The notes under the pieces are model-generated. The model worked only from the letters and a program-made list of their open reading frames with translations, had not been told where the DNA came from and did no database searches. From contig CAZQHP010000001.1 in the NCBI GenBank assembly GCA_964593805.1, positions 91-64,090 on the forward strand: a stretch of 64,000 bases of DNA, given 5' to 3'. Within the stretch, counting starts at the first letter, position 1. Each line of letters opens with the position of its first letter. Below are positions 5,298-58,108 of the stretch, one piece after another. Source of the stretch: an uncultured Candidatus Saccharibacteria bacterium. Lineage in GTDB: Bacteria; Patescibacteriota; Saccharimonadia; Saccharimonadales; JBBQAJ01. Position numbers and translations under genes: made by a program.

Positions 5298-7625
5298 TTA
5301 TAGGATGGGTGGCAAGCTGGTGATGGCATCGTAGCCGGCGTTGCCGCCAGGAGTACAGCTTTCTGATATGGCACACGGTGTTGCCAACCAGGTAGCTGGC
5401 GAGGCGTTGAATGTTTCGGCAGGAGTATTTGCACTCAAAGTGCCAATGCTACGGTAAAGTTTTAATTCCTTTGCAATAAACGCGCCTTTTACGGTAAGCG
5501 TGGATTTGCAAATAGTATTAAGTTCGTTTGTAGCATTTGGTGGCCGCCAAGTATTAGGAAGAAGATCGGGAAACGCGCAGGTGTAAATCTTCCCTCTGTT
5601 GCCCGCACTATCCGGTTGTGCCACGTACACGCCGTCCAATTGCGAAACTCCGGGTGCAATGTATATATTACCCTTTACCACTAGGTAGAAATTGGGCATA
5701 TCGTCAATGGTTGTAGCTCCACCAGCAAGCTTTATATTTCCCGCTATGTAAGCATCGCCGTTGACATAAATTATCGGACGTTTTCCTAATGCTATCGGCG
5801 GAGTTCCAAACGGTGTTGTTATAGTTAGCGCACCATTTGAAAACCATGCCGTTTTAGTATCGATTGTCCCAGATGCGATTGTTAATACTATGGGATCGGG
5901 AGTAACGTTCTTGAGTGTGTCGTAATAATCAGTAGGGCACGGTATTATGCCATCCGCCAAGGAACCCCCAAACAATGACCCAAAAAGAATCGTATTTGCA
6001 AAACTAAGACCAATTGGGGGAGAAGGATTTGTACGATTTTGGGCACTCGCTATGCCGTTTATTAAACCCCGTGAAAATGTAGCAAGATTGGTACCTGCAC
6101 CTATATTCGGATTTGTTACTTGATTCCAAGATGTCAATACTGGACTAGCTATCCCAGCTCCCCAGCCAGTACAGCCCGCAATCGGAATACCAGCGGCTAC
6201 ATCCCCGTTTCTGGCTATAAAGAAAGGTTTGCTGACGACATTAAAACTAACCGTGCCCGGACAAGAAATGGATCCAGCGTTGCCGCCGCTAACATTCCAG
6301 TCAATCGTATAGGTGCCGGCAGTATTGGCAACTATGGAACCCGACGTAACGTTTACGCTTGAACCTCCCGCAATATCCGGTATGGTAATGTTTGACTGCG
6401 GCGAACCAGAGGTAGGCAGAGGCGAAACCGTCAAACTAGCTTTACCGCCGGTGTATGTCACGGCAGTACTGGGTGAGTTGCTTATGTTCACTGTACTAGT
6501 GAAAGCCTGGCCAATTTCCGGCGACGATGGACTTATACTCACAAGATTACAACTTACGGTAGGCGCTGGGGGTGGGGGCGTACAGTTCTGATCAAAGTTA
6601 ATACTATCGTATGGCAGCTGGAACTGTATGCCATTCCGGCTTTTTACGCCTAAAAGCTCCCATTCGTACCGTTTGCCTGGTTGTACGGTAATTGTTTTGC
6701 TGTCCGCAACTCCATTACCTCCTGTCAGCGGCCAAAAATTTACAGGCGTTCTGACCCCGGTAGATGAAACTTCATATAGAATTGTGGCTATTGTGTTTGG
6801 ATTGCCACTTGTGTCGGTCTGGTTGCTTACGCCAGCATCGGCATCAAACCATGAAATATCAACTGGAGTAGGAACTTTTACGCTACACGAAGGAGCAAAC
6901 TGCAAACGCATATCTGCCCAACGGTCTGGGTCTAGCCACAACTGACCCAGCGCGAACTTATTGGTAGAACCGGCATAATAACTCAGTTTGTCTTGTGCTT
7001 GGGCAGTTATACTAAAACCATTGATACCATTCACAAACCCGTTATTTTGAGCTCGAATATAAGCAACGCGGTAGCCCTCATGCCCGGGAACAGCTGAAGG
7101 TGTTAAGCTACTCATGTTTAAGGTAATGGTGGGATCTCTGTAAACACTTGGGTTTGGATTATTGCAGTCTAATCCAGCGTTTCCAAAAAATGTCAGTGGC
7201 GCCGACATGGCTTCACTTGATGCTGCAGAACCTGCCGTTGCAGAAAAGAAAATAAATGCCGTATCTGGAAATTCCCTGGGCGCCCCGGCCAGGCTATCTA
7301 TATTCACACCCGGCGGAGAAAAGTTGTTTGGACACCAAGCCGCGTTGTTTATGCGAACTGTCACTTGTGATCGGCCATCGTCTTTTACAAAAAGCTTCAC
7401 GGTGGCTTCCGGCGCATCCAGCGCGTAATTGGCTCCAGCAGCCGCAACTGAAAGATACACATCGCCAACCTGAGTTGACGTCCCTATGTTTGTAAATTGC
7501 CCCGAGGGCACGTCTGGTAGTTTATTTGTAGCGGCTGATGCTTTGGACCCGGGGATAAACAAAAACGTAGTCACAAAAAAAGCCAAAAACAAAGTGTAGC
7601 GTTGGTATTTTTTAGGCAAAATCAT
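5298..7625 (-). CDS. Large secreted protein (775 aa), Gly/Asn/Thr/Ser-rich, pilus-operon associated; function unknown
   Basis: Signal-peptide-like N-terminus (..LFLAFFVTTFLFIPGSKASA). Start abuts the stop of the upstream TPR gene. It lies directly upstream of pilM. Confidence 0.7.
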   Translation of the reverse strand: MILPKKYQRYTLFLAFFVTTFLFIPGSKASAATNKLPDVPSGQFTNIGTSTQVGDVYLSVAAAGANYALDAPEATVKLFVKDDGRSQVTVRINNAAWCPNNFSPPGVNIDSLAGAPREFPDTAFIFFSATAGSAASSEAMSAPLTFFGNAGLDCNNPNPSVYRDPTITLNMSSLTPSAVPGHEGYRVAYIRAQNNGFVNGINGFSITAQAQDKLSYYAGSTNKFALGQLWLDPDRWADMRLQFAPSCSVKVPTPVDISWFDADAGVSNQTDTSGNPNTIATILYEVSSTGVRTPVNFWPLTGGNGVADSKTITVQPGKRYEWELLGVKSRNGIQFQLPYDSINFDQNCTPPPPAPTVSCNLVSISPSSPEIGQAFTSTVNISNSPSTAVTYTGGKASLTVSPLPTSGSPQSNITIPDIAGGSSVNVTSGSIVANTAGTYTIDWNVSGGNAGSISCPGTVSFNVVSKPFFIARNGDVAAGIPIAGCTGWGAGIASPVLTSWNQVTNPNIGAGTNLATFSRGLINGIASAQNRTNPSPPIGLSFANTILFGSLFGGSLADGIIPCPTDYYDTLKNVTPDPIVLTIASGTIDTKTAWFSNGALTITTPFGTPPIALGKRPIIYVNGDAYIAGNIKLAGGATTIDDMPNFYLVVKGNIYIAPGVSQLDGVYVAQPDSAGNRGKIYTCAFPDLLPNTWRPPNATNELNTICKSTLTVKGAFIAKELKLYRSIGTLSANTPAETFNASPATWLATPCAISESCTPGGNAGYDAITSLPPIL

Positions 7626-8234
7626 CTAGAATTGCCCCGTTTCTTCTACCGCCTTAGGGAATGTGGCATCGTATTTTTGCTGGTATTCATCAGCGGTTTT
7701 GGTATCACCAATTTCCTTAGCAATTGTTATGATAGTTGAGTATTGCAAAGGATTGTTGGCAGACTTTAGTGTATCCAAAAGCGCTTGTCCCGTTTTGTTC
7801 GTTTCGTCCTTATCGCCAGCTGCTTTATACGAGTTGTACAGTCCCCGCAGTATAGAACTTTTTAGTTTGTCTATATTATAGGTCTGTGCTTTTTTAAACG
7901 TGCTTATTGCTTCAGTATGCATATTCCTGTGCTGGTAGCTTAAGCCAAGGTCAAGATAAGTTGCTGCTGCAACATCTGACGGAGTGTTGGAATCAATCTT
8001 GACCGCTTCCAGCTGGGTCAATATTTCGTCTTTTGCCACCGGTTTTCTTGAATCTTTTTGCGCATTGTGATTAAAAACAGCACCCGTAGTAACAAGTACA
8101 AGTAAAACTACCGCTACCAAAAAAGCCTGGTTGCGGGTGAGTTTATTTAACCGGACGTGTTTGACTCTAGAAAATAGCGTGGGCTTCAAATCCCCTGTCA
8201 CAACATCGCTATTGATCGTTTTCTTGTGCTTCAT
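7626..8234 (-). CDS. Membrane-anchored TPR-like protein
   Basis: TM segment FLVAVVLLVLVTTGAVF followed by helical repeat-like sequence (..LGLSYQHRNMHTEAISTFKKAQ..). Confidence 0.55.
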   Translation of the reverse strand: MKHKKTINSDVVTGDLKPTLFSRVKHVRLNKLTRNQAFLVAVVLLVLVTTGAVFNHNAQKDSRKPVAKDEILTQLEAVKIDSNTPSDVAAATYLDLGLSYQHRNMHTEAISTFKKAQTYNIDKLKSSILRGLYNSYKAAGDKDETNKTGQALLDTLKSANNPLQYSTIITIAKEIGDTKTADEYQQKYDATFPKAVEETGQF

Positions 8235-8778: not shown

Positions 8779-9873
8779 ATGGCTCGTGTCGTAAAGAACG
8801 CTTCAAGAAAAAACAACAAGTCTAGAACTAGCTCAAGAAGACTTGGCTTTCGAAACAAGGTTTATCTAAGAAGTTCGCGGGCGTGGATATTTGCGCTGGC
8901 ATTTGCAGTAGTTGGCACTGTTTTGGTGTATAGAAGTTTTGCAGCAAGTAATTTGCCAAGCTATTCAGACGATATTGTCGCTGGTTATATTAATATGACT
9001 CCAACCAGCATAGTTAGGGACAGTGCGGGAAACCTAAGCTACGAAATGTATCCGGCCTCTACATACGTGCAGGTAGATGGTACTCTTGTTTGTGACCAAG
9101 GCGCATCGAATGGCTCTACGGTCACCACGGGCGCTTTGACAAAACGAGAAGTTGGCAAACTACATAAGGATCTGAATAGTTCCGGAGCCTTATCTTTGCC
9201 AGACGAAGTTTCTGCCGGTGATAAGTCAGCGGTCGTCGAATTTGAAGGCATCGTGATAGGCGGAGCCGAGTCTGCTAAGGGAACGGCCATTTATCCAGGA
9301 GCCAAGAAGCCTGCCGCATTTACCGAAGCCCAGGAGATGATCCAAGCCCTTTGCGCCAAAGCCAATAGCACAGTGGAACGCTCCACCATCAAGACCCCCA
9401 AAGAACCCAAACTGAAAAGTACTAAGAAAAGCGCCGTAACTTTTGTAGATAATCTGTTCACTGCCAAAGCGTCCGCTTGTTGCAACACCGGTACAAGGGA
9501 TACCGCTTTTGAAACTACCCATGCCAGTGCCATCAATACGTACCGGGCAAACAACAGTCGCACACAGCTGCCAAGAATTGCCTGCTTGGATAAAACAGCG
9601 CTGAACTGGACCCACAAAATGACCAACGCCGGGGCCATAAGCCACAATCCGAACTTGGGCAGCGACGTTACGAATAACTGCTACGTCTACTGGACAAAGC
9701 TTGGTGAAAACGTTGGCGTCGGCTATGACTCCTCTGGACTTATGGATGCGTTCATAAACAGCCCCTCCCACAATGCCAATTTGCTTGACAAGGACTGGAA
9801 ATATATGGGCATTGGCGGCGTCAAACATCCGGATGGACGTCTCTTCGTAACGCAGAACTACGCCAAGTGGTAA
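8779..9873 (+). CDS. Secreted/membrane-anchored protein with a C-terminal CAP/SCP (PR-1-like) domain
   Basis: RBS GGAG 7 nt before the ATG. N-terminal TM. C-terminus ..GENVGVGYDSSGLMDAFINSPSHNANLLDKDWKYMGIGG.. is typical of bacterial CAP/YkwD-like domains. Confidence 0.7.
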   Translation: MARVVKNASRKNNKSRTSSRRLGFRNKVYLRSSRAWIFALAFAVVGTVLVYRSFAASNLPSYSDDIVAGYINMTPTSIVRDSAGNLSYEMYPASTYVQVDGTLVCDQGASNGSTVTTGALTKREVGKLHKDLNSSGALSLPDEVSAGDKSAVVEFEGIVIGGAESAKGTAIYPGAKKPAAFTEAQEMIQALCAKANSTVERSTIKTPKEPKLKSTKKSAVTFVDNLFTAKASACCNTGTRDTAFETTHASAINTYRANNSRTQLPRIACLDKTALNWTHKMTNAGAISHNPNLGSDVTNNCYVYWTKLGENVGVGYDSSGLMDAFINSPSHNANLLDKDWKYMGIGGVKHPDGRLFVTQNYAKW

Positions 9874-29477: not shown

Positions 29478-29834
29478 ATGCCCATTATCAAATCAGCTAA
29501 AAAGCGTGTTCGAGTTGCCCGCAAGGCTACCGTGCGCAATGCCAAAACCAAGCGTAATCTGCGCCTGGCTCTGAAATCTTTTCAGTCTTCAGCAAGCGGC
29601 AGTACGCACAGCAAGGCCCAAAGCGCCCTAGACAAAGCTGGCAAAAAAGGCTTGCTCCACAAGAACAAAATTGCCCGCAAAAAGCGCCAGCTGGCCGCGG
29701 CCGCCAAAAAAGCCGGCGTAAAGACCGCTGGAATCGCCAAAGCCAAAAAAGTCGTTACAAAGAAACCAGCCGTAAAGAAAGCAGCTCCAAAGAAGGTAGT
29801 CGCCAAAAAGAAACCAGCAACAAAGAAAAAATAA
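29478..29834 (+). CDS. rpsT: 30S ribosomal protein S20 with a Lys/Ala/Pro-rich C-terminal extension
   Basis: MPIIKSAKKRVRVARKATVRNAKTKRNLR.. is the canonical S20 start. The last ~45 aa are AKKA/PKK repeats. Confidence 0.92.
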   Translation: MPIIKSAKKRVRVARKATVRNAKTKRNLRLALKSFQSSASGSTHSKAQSALDKAGKKGLLHKNKIARKKRQLAAAAKKAGVKTAGIAKAKKVVTKKPAVKKAAPKKVVAKKKPATKKK

Positions 29835-29860
29835 GCTTTTTATAAGACCAGTGTCGCAAC

Positions 29861-30325
29861 GCACGCTTCGCTCGCTTAAACCATACTTTTTGGTCAGCAA
29901 AAAGTAAGCAAAAACTGACGCCATGGGCTGCGAAACGTGACTGAATCATCTACCATGCATATGAGGCGCCAGCAGAATAGCGACTTCGTAGTTCTTTGGG
30001 ATTACTCACGTATGCTGCTGGCTCTACTCCTCATATACCTGAGATGATGCAATCAGTTTCTTGAATGGCGGGAACAAGCAGAGCCCCGCAAGCGAGCCAA
30101 ATCTATAATCCGCCGGAGGCGGATACCTTGGAGGCTTCTCAGACTCTGGAGGTTCCTGAAAAGCGTAGTGTCAAAGCTACCATTTGAGAGAGGAGTCCAC
30201 CGCGGCGGACGACGAGCATGGTAGCGCTTGACGACGAAGCTTATCAAGAACTGGAAGGGCTGTCATTTCTTTGGTTACTTTCTTGTTGACACAAGAAAGT
30301 AACTCAGCAACTGAGCCGAACGCGC
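29861..30325. ncRNA. Copy A of a two-copy ~465-nt non-coding, helix-rich element (candidate structured RNA or non-autonomous mobile element; class unknown, strand undetermined)
   Basis: Aligns with 45531-46005 in conserved blocks separated by non-homologous but self-complementary segments. No conserved ORF. It lies between the convergent rpsT and holA stops. Confidence 0.55.
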
Positions 30326-30338
30326 GCGTGAATGTGCT

Positions 30339-31238
30339 TTAAATGTTTAATAAAAATGCTTGCACTCCGTCGTCGGCGTCTATGGCGGTCGTTTTTAATT
30401 GCACGTCCAATTGCGCCAGTTCATGAACCAGTTGTTTAAGTTTTTCGGGTGGTAAATTACGAGTAATTTTGCGGCTTTTGCTGACTACAAACGGATTGAT
30501 TTTGGCATCGGCGGCAATGTTTGCGTCACTACGATCCCCAGCCGCTTTGACCACAGCCAGCACATGCAGCTGCCAGGCGAGCATGGCAATGATTTGTTGC
30601 GGTTCAACCCGGCTGGCACGCTGCTGCGCGTAGAGTTTTAGCATATGTTTTTGGTCGCCAGCAAAAGCGGAGTCTAGCAGCTGGAATATCGTGCTCCGCG
30701 GATTTGGTTCTGTTAGCAAATCAATTTCCGCACGCGTGACTTTGGAATTGTACGTTGCCAGTTTTGCCAGCTCGTTGACGAGCAATTGCTGATTGGCACC
30801 TACCCGTTCTACTAAGTATTGTGCGTCAGATTGGCTTATGTCTGCCTGCTCGGTAATCCATTTCGCCAGTCCGTATTCATCCAGCTCATTAAATTCTTTG
30901 TATTCGGTGTTTTTCTTCAGATATTTGTAGTAACTAGAGCGTTTGTCTAGTTTGGGTTCGTGAATAATCACGTCTGTTGTTTCTGGCAAATTACTCAAAA
31001 GTTGTTCAACTTTTTCTACAAACTCTTTGTTGGCACTTGGAGCCCGTAAAACCACCAACTTTTTGCTGGCCAAAAAAGGCAAACTTTCCAGCGCTTCCCG
31101 AATCCGGTCATATTCCGCTTCTTCCCCATCTATCCTATCCAACCCCATGTCTGTGTATTCTTTGATAAACGTCGAAGCCAGCCGTTGAAGCTCGGCCTGC
31201 ACCAAATACGAATTACTCCCCGAAAGCGTAGTTATCAT
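30339..31238 (-). CDS. holA: DNA polymerase III delta subunit
   Basis: MITTLSGSNSYLVQAEL.. and ..KLVVLRAPS.. show the HolA pattern. The ATG at 31238 lies 14 nt after the mutM stop. The longer ORF-track start overlaps mutM. Confidence 0.8.
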   Translation of the reverse strand: MITTLSGSNSYLVQAELQRLASTFIKEYTDMGLDRIDGEEAEYDRIREALESLPFLASKKLVVLRAPSANKEFVEKVEQLLSNLPETTDVIIHEPKLDKRSSYYKYLKKNTEYKEFNELDEYGLAKWITEQADISQSDAQYLVERVGANQQLLVNELAKLATYNSKVTRAEIDLLTEPNPRSTIFQLLDSAFAGDQKHMLKLYAQQRASRVEPQQIIAMLAWQLHVLAVVKAAGDRSDANIAADAKINPFVVSKSRKITRNLPPEKLKQLVHELAQLDVQLKTTAIDADDGVQAFLLNI

Positions 31239-44814: not shown

Positions 44815-45519
44815 ATGCCAAGCGACAAACTTTCTGGACTTCTACTGCACAAAGATCCGTCTGATAGTGCTGACAATGCCAATGAGCTTCCGGCAGCGCC
44901 TCCCGCGCCACCGCCGCTTCAGCGCGTAACGGCTCAGCACAACCCTTACGATTTTATTACCAACCCCGGGGCTCCCGCGAAGAAAAAGCTGCTGCCTGGC
45001 GGTAATTCAAAGACCGGCCGGTTACTTTTGGCGGCCGCGGCTGGCGTGGTACTGATTGTGCTGGCTTTGGTCGTTATGGCGGTCCTAAACAGCGGAAGTT
45101 CCGCACTCAAAACAGATTACGCGAACCTTGCTCAGCAGCAAGCAGAATTAATACGTGTTAGCGGTGTTGGCGCCACCAAAGCCCGCCAGGCGGAAGCTAA
45201 AAACCTGGCAATCACCACGCAGTACACGCTTACTTCACAGCAGCCTGGTATTTTATCGCTTGCCAAAAAAGCCGGCGCCTCTACAGATGCTAAAACGCTG
45301 ACGCTCGGCAAAGATGCTCAGACAGATGCCGCGCTCACCAGCGCCGACCAAGCCAATCAATTCGACGAAGTTTTTACCAAAACTCTGCGGGAAGGCCTGC
45401 AAAAATACCAGCAAGCGCTTAAGAAAATTTACGACGCCACAAGTAGTAGCTCTACCAGAGACACCCTATCCAAAGATTACAATGCCATAGATGCCCTTCT
45501 GGGCAATAAAGTGGAATAG
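44815..45519 (+). CDS. Membrane-anchored hypothetical protein
   Basis: TM segment LLLAAAAGVVLIVLALVVMAV. The ATG at 44815 lies 7 nt after TACAAT (44802-44807). The ORF-track ATG at 44809 is too close to the -10 box. Confidence 0.55.
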   Translation: MPSDKLSGLLLHKDPSDSADNANELPAAPPAPPPLQRVTAQHNPYDFITNPGAPAKKKLLPGGNSKTGRLLLAAAAGVVLIVLALVVMAVLNSGSSALKTDYANLAQQQAELIRVSGVGATKARQAEAKNLAITTQYTLTSQQPGILSLAKKAGASTDAKTLTLGKDAQTDAALTSADQANQFDEVFTKTLREGLQKYQQALKKIYDATSSSSTRDTLSKDYNAIDALLGNKVE

Positions 45520-45530
45520 AACCTCTTAGC

Positions 45531-46005
45531 GCACACCTCGCTTGCTTAAACCATACTTTTTGGTCAGCAAAAAGTATGCAAAAACTGACGCCATGGGCCG
45601 CGAAACATGATTGTCCCCATAACCAGCCAACTGCTGCGCCGAAACGACTAAAGGCCCAAACTTTTATTTGGGATCAGTTTGGACGAGTTCCGGCTTGATT
45701 CAGCAGTTGTCTGAATGAGTGCATCAGTTTCTTGAATGGCGGGAACAAGCAGAGTCCCGCACCGCGGGACAAATTAAATAATCCGCCTATGGCGGATGCC
45801 ATGGTCTTGTTCAGGCTCTGGAAGTTCCTGATGACGGAGTTGTTAAAACTACCATTAGAGTGAGGAGTCCGCCGCGGCGGATGACGAGTATGGTGGTTTT
45901 GACAATGGAGACATCAAGAACTGGAAGTGGCTGTCGCTCTTTTTGCATACTTTTTCTTCGACAAGAAAAAGTATGGCGGGAAGTCCGCTGTGGCGGACGC
46001 CGAAA
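45531..46005. ncRNA. Copy B of the two-copy ~465-nt non-coding helix-rich element
   Basis: Homologous blocks shared with 29861-30325. It lies between the convergent stops of the 44815 gene and the yjbR-like gene. It has terminal hairpins with identical stems, CATACTTTTT/AAAAAGTATG. Confidence 0.55.
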
Positions 46006-46011
46006 CTGTCT

Positions 46012-46359
46012 TTATTCTACTGTCGGTGCCGATTGACTACCTTCTCCGCTCACTAAATTATACGAATGCAGTATTAGACCTCGTACTTCTTCCCACGGGA
46101 GTTGTCCAGTGAGTATGACGGTATTCCAATGCTTTTTGTTCAGATGATAGCCCTCCAGCACCGTTTCAAATTTGTCGCGCAAAATAACCGCCAGCTGAGG
46201 GTCGCATTTTAAACTTATGCGCAGCGGATTAGTACCCTCGCTGATTAGCGCGAACATTTTGTCTTTTACCTTATACACAGCCACGCCCTCGCCAAACGGA
46301 TAATCCAGCCGCGCTTTCGGCATGCTCAACACATATTCTTCAACTGTCTTATGATCCAT
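46012..46359 (-). CDS. MmcQ/YjbR-family protein
   Basis: ..ARLDYPFGEGVAVYKVKDKMFALI....RISLKCDP......LNKKHWNTV.. shows the YjbR pattern. Confidence 0.75.
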   Translation of the reverse strand: MDHKTVEEYVLSMPKARLDYPFGEGVAVYKVKDKMFALISEGTNPLRISLKCDPQLAVILRDKFETVLEGYHLNKKHWNTVILTGQLPWEEVRGLILHSYNLVSGEGSQSAPTVE

Positions 46360-47748: not shown

Positions 47749-47774
47749 CGGTTAGCTGACTGCTACCAGCTAGA
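47747..47774. repeat. Degenerate tandem heptamers x4 spanning a convergent gene junction
   Basis: agcggtt agctgac tgctacc agctaga. It overlaps both stop codons (47748 and 47770). Confidence 0.8.
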
Positions 47775-49182: not shown

Positions 49183-49593
49183 CTAGCTGGACTTTTTTTC
49201 GGGCTCGAATTTGAGACAGACGGAGTTTATACAGTAATGTTTGCCTGTTGGCGTATCGTCCACTCCGTCAAAAACATGTCCAAGGTGGCTTCCGCAATTA
49301 GAACAAACTGCTTCTAACCGGTACATTCCCATGGATTTATCATCTACCAATTCCACCGCACCACCTTTGGCAACGTCAGCAAAACTAGGCCAACCAATTA
49401 ACCCTGGAGTTTTTGAGTCGTGCTTGTCGTTACTTGAAAAAAGCATTGCTCCGCAAGCAGCGCAATTATATACACCGGGTTTAGTATTTTTTGCAAAATC
49501 GCCACTAAATGGAGCTTCTGTCCCCTTTTGCCGCAAAATTCTATATTGCTCGGGTGTGAGTTTTTTCTTCCACTCGTCCTCAGAAAGCTGCAT
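49183..49593 (-). CDS. msrB: Peptide-methionine (R)-S-oxide reductase
   Basis: ..[20 protein letters not shown].. and ..[14 protein letters not shown].. Two CxxC pairs are present. Confidence 0.92.
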
Positions 49594-49594
49594 G

Positions 49595-50014
49595 CTAATC
49601 AGCTTTCTTTTTGTCTAGTTTTTCCAAATGTAGCCCTTTGAACACAAAGTACACGACTGCGGCCACAGTGACAAAACTTATGAACTGGCTTACAAACGCT
49701 CCCCACAAAAAATCTTGCGTTTTTCCGTTCAGACTCAGCGCAAAAGACTTTTCAGCCAAGGTGCCTTCGCCTGGCAAAACCAAGCCGACAATAGGGTTGA
49801 TAAAACTTATCACCATCTGGTCGACCAACGTTTTGACCTGCGTGCCAAGTACTAAACCAATCGCCAACCCCACCACGCCCTGTTCGCGGACAAATACCAT
49901 AAAACCGGCTAACTGGCTCTTTACTTTCCTGCCAGGAATTTTTTCCAGCTGTTCGCGCGCCGCTTCCACCCGCTTGAGAACTTCGGCCTTAGTAGGCTGC
50001 TTATTATTTAACAT
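49595..50014 (-). CDS. mscL: Large-conductance mechanosensitive channel
   Basis: ..[20 protein letters not shown].....V..MV..FINP.. Confidence 0.9.
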
Positions 50015-57928: not shown

Positions 57929-58108
57929 GAGTGCAAACTCCCTAACTTATGTAATTACCATAGTACAAAATGGCTTTTTAAGCAAGTTGAACTGCTGGCA
58001 TAGAAAAGCTTGTGCTTATTTATCCCTGAGGGAAAAGAGCAGCCGAAGCGTCGGATTCATTCCGCTCCTCGCGCGACGAGAAAAACCGTAGGTTTGTCTC
58101 TGTTACTC

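Follow-up and report, generated by a model that had tools for sequence, protein, structure and literature searches.

Saccharibacteria and other bacteria of the candidate phyla radiation (CPR) have tiny, gene-dense genomes, and the locus described here raises the question of what an intergenic spacer of about 0.5 kb, bounded at both ends by hairpins of one type, represents in such a genome. The spacer lies at positions 45520-46011 of a stretch of 64,000 nucleotides (nt) from an uncultured Candidatus Saccharibacteria bacterium, hereafter called the window, and is referred to as copy B; a second, related copy, A, is found in the same window. An earlier note, made from the letters alone, had offered a non-autonomous mobile element as one reading of copy B. 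In agreement with that reading, we found that copy B is a repeat devoid of open reading frames (ORFs), whose relatives occupy different intergenic sites of related genomes. Our interpretation, held with about even confidence, is that copy B represents, at full length, a family not described before, made up of non-coding, modular, extensively self-pairing and mobile units resembling miniature inverted-repeat transposable elements (MITEs) and bacterial interspersed mosaic elements (BIMEs).

Each of the two elements fills its spacer, because homology with the further copies described below extends from stop codon to stop codon. Copy B, slightly longer than had been proposed, runs from the stop of a conserved 236-aa ORF on the plus strand (45517-45519) to that of yjbR on the minus strand (46012-46014), and dnaG adjoins. 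Copy A is the entire spacer between the stops of rpsT (29832-29834, plus strand) and holA (30339-30341, minus strand). Both copies stand in housekeeping surroundings, and the neighbouring proteins place the genome in Candidatus Saccharimonadales. Their parts are as follows.

45520-46011, plus strand: copy B, full-length element (nhmmer E=1.8e-153; alignment with copies A and C)
45520-45551, plus strand: 5' leader of B (..AGCGCACACCTCGCTTGCTTAAAC), forming the outer portion of the left inverted repeat; conserved also in A, C, E and I5
45552-45578, plus strand: 5' hairpin of B, CATACTTTTTG-GTCAG-CAAAAAGTATG, 9 pairs
45579-45593, plus strand: inner flank of the left repeat of B, complementary to 45929-45945
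45602-45731, plus strand: long hairpin of the 5' domain of B, with variable helices and a conserved apical block ..TTTGGGAT..
45732-45752, plus strand: core block of B, TTGAATGGCGGGAACAAGCAG, inside a 32-nt run identical in A and B (45722-45753)
45754-45770, plus strand: small GC hairpin of B, GTCCCGC-acc-GCGGGAC
45781-45797, plus strand: small GC hairpin of B, ATCCGCC-tat-GGCGGAT
45809-45936, plus strand: core of the 3' module of B, a long irregular hairpin (CAGGCTCTGGAAGTTCCTGA ... TCAAGAACTGGAAGTGGCTG; covariance model 134.2 bits, E=6e-35)
45929-45975, plus strand: right repeat of B, inner flank GGCTGTCGCTCTTTTTG and then the 3' hairpin
45946-45975, plus strand: 3' hairpin of B, CATACTTTTTCTT-cgac-AAGAAAAAGTATG, 13-bp stem
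45983-45998, plus strand: small GC hairpin of B, GTCCGC-tgtg-GCGGAC, followed by the trailer GCCGAAACTGTCT to 46011
29835-30338, plus strand: copy A, full-length element (nhmmer, alignment, covariance model)
29882-29908, plus strand: 5' hairpin of A
29932-30060, plus strand: long hairpin of A
30137-30265, plus strand: 3' module of A
30274-30303, plus strand: 3' hairpin of A
30303-30315, plus strand: small hairpin of A

The element is composed of two parts. The 5' domain (~290 nt) consists of the leader, an A/U-rich hairpin of the form xACTTTTTG-loop-CAAAAAGTx, a covarying hairpin of 130 nt and a short long-range closing helix, which is formed in B by the pairing of GAACAA (45743-45748) with TTGCTT (45542-45547). 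The 3' module (~200 nt) comprises a conserved irregular hairpin of 130-160 nt, an A/U-rich hairpin of the same type and a small terminal hairpin. The core block TTGAATGGCGGGAACAAGCAG of A and B is not kept in copies C and E, and other hairpins stand in C and E at the place of the two GC hairpins at 45754-45797. The trailer of B directly adjoins the yjbR stop codon, and a trailer GAAACTGT.. is common to B and C. After the main 3' hairpin, a small second hairpin of varying sequence is present in A, B, E, G, H and I. As the earlier note had stated, the 3' hairpin of A (GTTACTTTCTTG-ttgaca-CAAGAAAGTAAC) keeps the structure but not the sequence of that of B, and is followed by CTCAG-caa-CTGAG. Its description of the hairpins of B also stands for the most part: the 5' hairpin is found where it had been placed, with the loop read here as gtcag, and the GC hairpin GTCCGC-tgtg-GCGGAC is present as given, whereas the 3' hairpin, although real, has slightly different coordinates and a longer stem than claimed.

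The hairpins at the ends are far beyond chance. The string CATACTTTTT occurs five times in the window, every time in end hairpins, compared with an expectation of 0.23, and hairpins of the type TACTTTYT..ARAAAGTA occur exactly four times, at both ends of each copy, with 0.00 expected. In copies A, B and C, the end hairpins are the inner part of imperfect terminal inverted repeats of ~95 nt, to which the leader 45520-45551 of B belongs. When the first 105 nt were compared with the reverse complement of the last 105 nt in these three copies, the score was 74, against 40-42 ± 5.7 for shuffled sequences (z about 5.6-6). Similarly, the 5' hairpin with its loop and flank gave local scores of 32-42 against the reverse complement of the 3' hairpin, whereas shuffles gave 15 ± 2 and the direct 3' sequence 22-26. 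The loop of the 5' hairpin of B (GTCAG, 45563-45567) is complementary to a downstream CTGAC (45585-45589), as noticed earlier, and this complementarity recurs as the matched variants CGAC/GTCG and TGACA/TGTCA. The pseudoknot proposed on this basis is only suggestive, because the outer flank, used as a control, pairs with the loop almost as well as the inner flank (3-4 bp and 4-5 bp, respectively, with G-U allowed).

Outside the elements, the left flanks are the upstream stop codons TAA, TAG and TAA, with no further conservation 5' of the element. A conserved target motif just 5' of GCAC(G/A)C, which had been suggested earlier, is not visible, and the bases there belong to the element itself. 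The flanks of A, B and C each allow a TA dinucleotide to be read, which is uninformative beside TAA, TAG and TTA stop codons. Both window copies are on the same strand, probably the lagging one, because GC skew is weakly negative over the window (1-64000) and the minus strand carries most genes.

Next, the pairing of the element was analyzed. Both copies fold much more strongly than shuffled sequences, with z-scores of -7.3 for B and -5.1 for A. For the 5' domain (five copies, RNAalifold), 55 pairs were obtained, and 86.6% of cells were paired, compared with 37-45% when the partners were slid. Changes on both sides were observed in 30 of the 55 pairs, compared with 4-11 in the slid controls, and none of 500 shuffles reached the observed values. 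The long hairpin at 45602-45731 contributes 38 of these pairs (helices 4-7), 22 of them with changes on both sides, and the 5' hairpin of B shows compensatory changes in four of its nine pairs. For the 3' module (nine copies), 29 pairs were obtained with 94.6% of cells paired; six were compensatory, compared with one or two in the slid controls. Base pairing is, in sum, strongly supported by covariation, well above the controls. The 3' module also contains unpaired blocks that are invariant (CTCTGGAAGTTCCTGA, GAGNGAGGAG, GACGAGYAT and TCAAGAACTGGAAG); in its core, GAGNGAGGAG and GACGAGYAT are conserved and the apical hairpin is variable, being wholly different between lineages. A and B are strongly diverged, as previously stated, with 74% identity over ~445 nt, and their alignment shows identical blocks of 20-33 nt alternating with stretches that differ at nearly all bases and keep their pairing. 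Since more than 80 base pairs and invariant unpaired blocks have been kept at 26% divergence, a selected function of the folded strand, and not parasitism alone, is indicated. A relationship of the 5' domain to the 3' module as its inverted paralogue was also considered and was not established; when the 5' domain of C was read on its reverse strand, the covariance model scored only 6.5 bits (E about 0.05).

Further copies, whose search the earlier note had proposed, were found at other loci in other assemblies. Orthologous loci in relatives were fetched via holA and the 236-aa protein, and these loci provided copies C and D.

L023:14798-15291: copy C, full length, between vanY and the PGA_cap gene
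L022:11395-11578: copy D, 3' module, partial, adjoining msrB

A pattern made from the blocks invariant in A-D was then scanned against the GTDB species representatives and matched at five places in four metagenome-assembled genomes (MAGs) of Saccharibacteria; seven further matches in unrelated taxa, about the number expected by chance, were not individually inspected. Altogether, seven copies are known beyond the window. C and E are full length, and D, F, G, H and I are the 3' module alone. A separate 5' domain (I5, in L034) and one stub (in L021) were also observed in other assemblies. A covariance model of the 3' module scores each of the nine copies at 113-140 bits and detects nothing beyond the known copies, whether in the window or across ~270 kb of related loci. 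As far as seen, the family is confined to a subclade of Candidatus Saccharimonadales.

These copies show that the element is modular. The 3' module stands alone at five of the nine loci, and its 5' boundary is the same within about 20 nt, while the 5' domain is kept in A, B, C, E and I5. Copies E (full length) and G (3' module), which are in one MAG, have exactly 202 nt in common at 94% identity with sharp ends, and their differences include two compensatory double changes in the terminal hairpin. The 3' module of B is 85% identical to that of D and 83% to that of F, both in other genomes, but 78% to that of A in its own genome, indicating that distinct element lineages coexist. The nine copies are in nine different, non-syntenic contexts. 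Their neighbours are unrelated housekeeping genes (for example, trmD, recR/ybaB, RNase H, comM, infC and msrB), and the flanking proteins of different copies show no mutual homology. A, B and C begin 0-25 nt past the stop of a co-oriented gene, and six copies end at the stop of a convergent gene.

The units have no coding capacity. Six-frame ORFs of at least 18 aa in ten units showed no common start, stop or frame, and a type I toxin-antitoxin repeat (hok/sok, Ldr or Ibs-like) was rejected since the ten units contain no conserved small ORF. The only ORF found inside any element, of 223 aa, is in L034 (2500-3689), where copy I follows the 5' domain at a distance of 750 nt and the two bracket the ORF, which is on the opposite strand. 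This layout may reflect two independent insertions or a gene inserted into the element. The ORF had no match in Pfam, PHROG or NCBIfam, and its candidacy as a cargo or mobility gene was rejected, because the few homologues it has belong to ordinary operons that lack the element.

Three independent Logan short-read contigs stop inside the element: L015 at 49 nt into copy A, L016 in the 3' hairpin of A and L022 in the 3' hairpin of D. Such breaks are expected of a repeat and hint at more copies per genome than are visible here.

Searches for known families gave no identification. With Rfam 15, whose families include 6S, RNase P, tmRNA, SRP, group I/II introns, HEARO, ROOL, GOLLD and OLE, no match was found in the window at the gathering score, and for both copies a threshold of E<=10 gave only noise; that the search is effective in this clade is seen from the recovery of RNase P, 5S and 23S in the related loci. 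In one of those loci (L018:4743-4810), a borderline match to ASdes, a mycobacterial small RNA (sRNA), was obtained at 40.4 bits (gathering score, 40); it lies within or beside a fatty-acid desaturase gene and is probably desaturase coding sequence. ARAGORN detected no tRNA or tmRNA. A metagenome scan with a 19-mer identical in A and B (GAATGGCGGGAACAAGCAG) gave six matches, all by chance and mostly in coding or unrelated sequence; it failed because the core is not conserved in C and E. In viral contigs, a 16-mer gave chance matches only and the family pattern gave none, and no match was found by blastn (distant mode) in phages and plasmids. No comparable element was found in the literature consulted on Saccharibacteria and Patescibacteria.

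A second, short intergenic repeat or motif (..AGACAAACCTACGGTTTTTCTC.TC.CGC.., then a hairpin and GCTCTTTTCCC) was observed at about 58030-58108 of the window on the minus strand, directly downstream of the groEL stop (58109). It is also present at L039:12856-12951, L028:2953-3070, L018:13166-13238 and L029:5982-6054, adjoining different genes in several Saccharimonadales genomes, and has no Rfam match and no significant similarity to the studied element.

Empty sites in relatives, which had likewise been proposed as a check, were found for both window copies. The opposite outcome named beforehand, neither extra copies nor empty sites, is contradicted by the finding of both. Four syntenic junctions are polymorphic among relatives, and each is filled in a single lineage. 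At the rpsT-holA junction, the window and L016 (holA 87% identical in amino acids) carry the element, whereas the stops are 0-18 nt apart in L017 (holA 78%), in L018 and L019 (both 70%) and in L036. In L016 the last 50 nt of the element are 96% identical, after which the contig ends; better conservation of the element end than of the flanking holA was considered and rejected, as the adjacent 150 nt are 93% identical. Between fpg and holA, L016 also has an additional gene of 337 aa (6192-7205) with no counterpart in the window. The junction of the 236-aa gene with yjbR is filled in the window, whereas the two genes abut or overlap in L023 and L039-L046. In L021 this junction contains only a stub of 106 nt (1893-1998), made of a family hairpin (GTTACTTTTTTG-ctgac-CAAAAAAGTAAC) and a B-like trailer, and in L022 it contains 175 nt (7511-7685) with one family-type hairpin (GGTACTTATTTGTCC-tatt-GGACACAAAAGTACT). 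In L023 (6158-9068, ENA contig_6268), sigma-70 and dnaG are called as short fragments, probably through assembly frameshift errors and not as pseudogenes. The remaining two junctions are empty in the window.

47749-47769: empty site, a spacer of 21 nt separating vanY from PGA_cap, filled in L023 alone (copy C)
49593-49595: empty site, junction of msrB and mscL, genes 1 nt apart, filled only in L022 (copy D)

In L022, the spacer between vanY and PGA_cap (9423-9545) is 123 nt long and very A/T-rich, with short internal repeats (GGCTAATGG, AATTTGG), and bears no relation to copy C, which occupies this site in L023. Relatives whose sites are empty are too diverged (60-78% identity in amino acids) for junctions to be read at the level of single bases. 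Single gains in single lineages are a more parsimonious explanation of the four junctions than many precise losses.

From these observations we infer the following course. The units would be non-autonomous mobile DNA, copied or moved by a function encoded elsewhere, that would land in the near-zero spacers between the gene ends of compact genomes. They would persist for long because their folded single-stranded form is under selection. Most simply, this form would be a read-through transcript of the flanking gene, in which the fold would serve as a 3'-end, terminator or stabilizer structure, as in repetitive extragenic palindromic (REP) sequences, BIMEs and Correia-type repeats. REP repeats have proposed roles in transcription termination and in the protection of mRNA 3' ends. 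Mobility and a functional fold are probably both true of the units.

Several points weigh against this interpretation. The copy number is low, with two copies in 64 kb and none in ~87 kb of the loci of five other relatives, and the copies are old, being 74-78% identical within a genome, with no recent burst except E/G. Copy E is without the terminal inverted repeat, and a target-site duplication was not established at A, B and C. Neither a mobilizing enzyme nor an autonomous parent was found among the 50 window ORFs and the neighbours of the copies. The remnants in L021 and L022 suggest decayed elements rather than sites that were never occupied, so that part of the polymorphism would be loss and not gain. 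Promoters and canonical terminators in the element are not above shuffled counts. In addition, tests of which strand is folded or transcribed did not decide between the two: G-U pairs outnumber A-C pairs 26 to 13, favouring the plus strand (p about 0.03, with cells that are not independent and a structure predicted on plus), but the RNAalifold consensus energies are similar on both strands.

The main rival, possible but doubtful in our judgement, is that the units are a family of trans-acting structured non-coding RNA (ncRNA) genes. They would encode an RNA of ~200 nt (the 3' module), sometimes fused to the 5' domain of ~290 nt, with a protein-binding or regulatory role, for instance as a 6S-like rod with a conserved purine-rich bubble, and would be duplicated, lost and occasionally relocated without being transposable. 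The very strong covariation fits this explanation, as do the invariance of the unpaired GAGNGAGGAG, GACGAGYAT and CTCTGGAAGTTCCTGA in nine copies from at least six genomes, and the closing stem, asymmetric conserved bubble and variable apical stem. Five stand-alone copies preserve the whole 3' module and agree in its 5' boundary, the identical blocks of 20-33 nt persist between A and B despite their divergence, and the low copy number is also in keeping with genes. However, non-syntenic positions and four polymorphic sites are at odds with it, and an sRNA gene needs no terminal inverted repeat of ~95 nt. No conserved promoter was found upstream of the stand-alone copies, no Rfam family, 6S included, matched even at E<=10, the exact motif is present in only four GTDB species representatives, and the strand tests did not decide between the two strands. 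A housekeeping ncRNA at a single locus, which the earlier note had set against a mobile element, is contradicted by nine copies in nine contexts in place of one syntenic copy.

A purely selfish DNA repeat (a MITE or nested palindromes) is unlikely and, like the relic discussed last, less likely than the readings above. Here, compensatory changes would arise by template switching or gene conversion in quasi-palindromes, with no RNA function. All paired regions are indeed local palindromes of the DNA, the two strands have equal folding energies and alifold scores, and there are terminal inverted repeats. In the alignments, moreover, the two ends of one element vary together, A having TTCG at each end and C having CTACG. 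Nevertheless, long unpaired blocks are conserved in sequence, and half-elements without one end are still conserved at 113-140 bits. Copies of 74% identity should also have decayed in deletion-prone streamlined genomes, and the excess of G-U over A-C is weak evidence in the same direction.

It is quite improbable that the modules are self-contained mobile RNA genes, an ORF-less class of element whose conserved fold, with its invariant purine-rich bubble and its end hairpins with loop-flank pairing, is itself needed for propagation or targeting, for example as a guide or scaffold RNA for an RNA-guided enzyme encoded in trans or as a template for a reverse transcriptase (RT) acting in trans. If true, this would be a CPR-specific analogue of omega and bridge RNAs or of short interspersed elements (SINEs).

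Weakest, and very improbable, is an ORF-less IS200/IS605 derivative (PATE), with the end hairpins as the left and right ends (LE/RE) recognized by TnpA and the 3' module as a relic omega/reRNA scaffold: the same-stem subterminal hairpins found at either end of B, the conserved module adjoining its right end, which resembles a structured RNA, and two window copies on one strand with negative GC skew recall such elements, but the resemblance drawn in the earlier note is not supported, because the hairpins with their loops and flanks are inverted and not same-strand direct LE/RE, nor was there a HEARO or IS605-orfB RNA match even at E<=10, a tnpA/tnpB/iscB-like domain in the 50 window ORFs or beside the nine copies, or a conserved target of 4-5 nt 5' of the left end. 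More generally, the absence of a transposase from the window, stated earlier, was supported: no transposase, recombinase or RT domain was found in the 50 window ORFs examined (Pfam) or beside any of the nine copies.

The favoured interpretation, that of non-coding mobile units with a functional fold, can be compared with known systems. REPINs are REP-based units mobilized by RAYT transposases (PMC3116915, PMC3337134, PMC3733652). Like REPs, REPINs and BIMEs, the elements are extragenic palindromic hairpins between gene ends, often of convergent genes; the unit has two hairpins in inverted orientation (in A, B and C), modules are combined as mosaics, and vertical persistence is long with conserved pairing. 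Unlike REPs, which number hundreds per genome, their hairpins are A/U-rich (stems xACTTTTT/AAAAAGTx), lack the GTAG/CGTC tag and are found only four times in 64 kb, always inside elements. Unlike in REPINs, whose spacer is short, the hairpins are ~370 nt apart with a conserved and covarying spacer, and the scan of 50 window ORFs revealed nothing like RAYT.

Bacterial MITEs with structured transcripts include Correia/CREE, ERIC, RUP/BOX and bcr1-type repeats (PMC2229807, PMC3184786). The elements resemble them in being non-coding, shorter than 600 bp and intergenic, with terminal inverted repeats (in A, B and C, not in E) and insertion polymorphism between relatives, and would also resemble them in co-transcription with neighbouring genes; modular composition is as in BOX elements. 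They differ in that no burst of many near-identical copies is seen, target duplication could not be demonstrated and a parent insertion sequence (IS) was not found in the window or the relatives' loci examined. The two copies in 64 kb are 74% identical, and E/G, the most similar pair within one genome, reaches 94% over 202 nt. The internal domains show more covariation and more invariant unpaired blocks than expected of MITEs, and half-units are conserved alone.

Large structured RNAs offer two further comparisons. HEARO and OMEGA (IscB, TnpB) RNAs and IS200/IS605 PATEs, reportedly described by Weinberg et al. 2009, Altae-Tran et al. 2021 and Dyall-Smith et al. 2011, likewise combine a large structured RNA motif within a mobile element, empty and filled sites, ORF-less copies and subterminal hairpins. 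The present elements, however, match those RNA families in neither sequence nor structure, have no associated nuclease or transposase ORF at any copy, and have inverted rather than direct ends. With the large orphan ncRNAs and 6S-type rods (6S, Ms1, OLE, ROOL and GOLLD), they have in common size, strong covariation, conserved internal loops and, in some cases, several paralogous copies, but they differ in the lack of an Rfam match, in their non-syntenic polymorphic sites, in the terminal inverted repeats and in the separable modules.

In CPR bacteria, descriptions of mobile elements are few, and hardly any lineage-specific non-coding RNA has been reported. The present family adds ~0.5 kb of non-coding DNA at places where adjacent genes would otherwise touch or overlap, and is a tractable marker of genome dynamics in CPR lineages. 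It is also a candidate large structured RNA, with covariation support, for work on structure and function. Finally, there is a modest chance of a truly new RNA-based mobile system, and the family may provide an entry point to a mobilization system not yet known.

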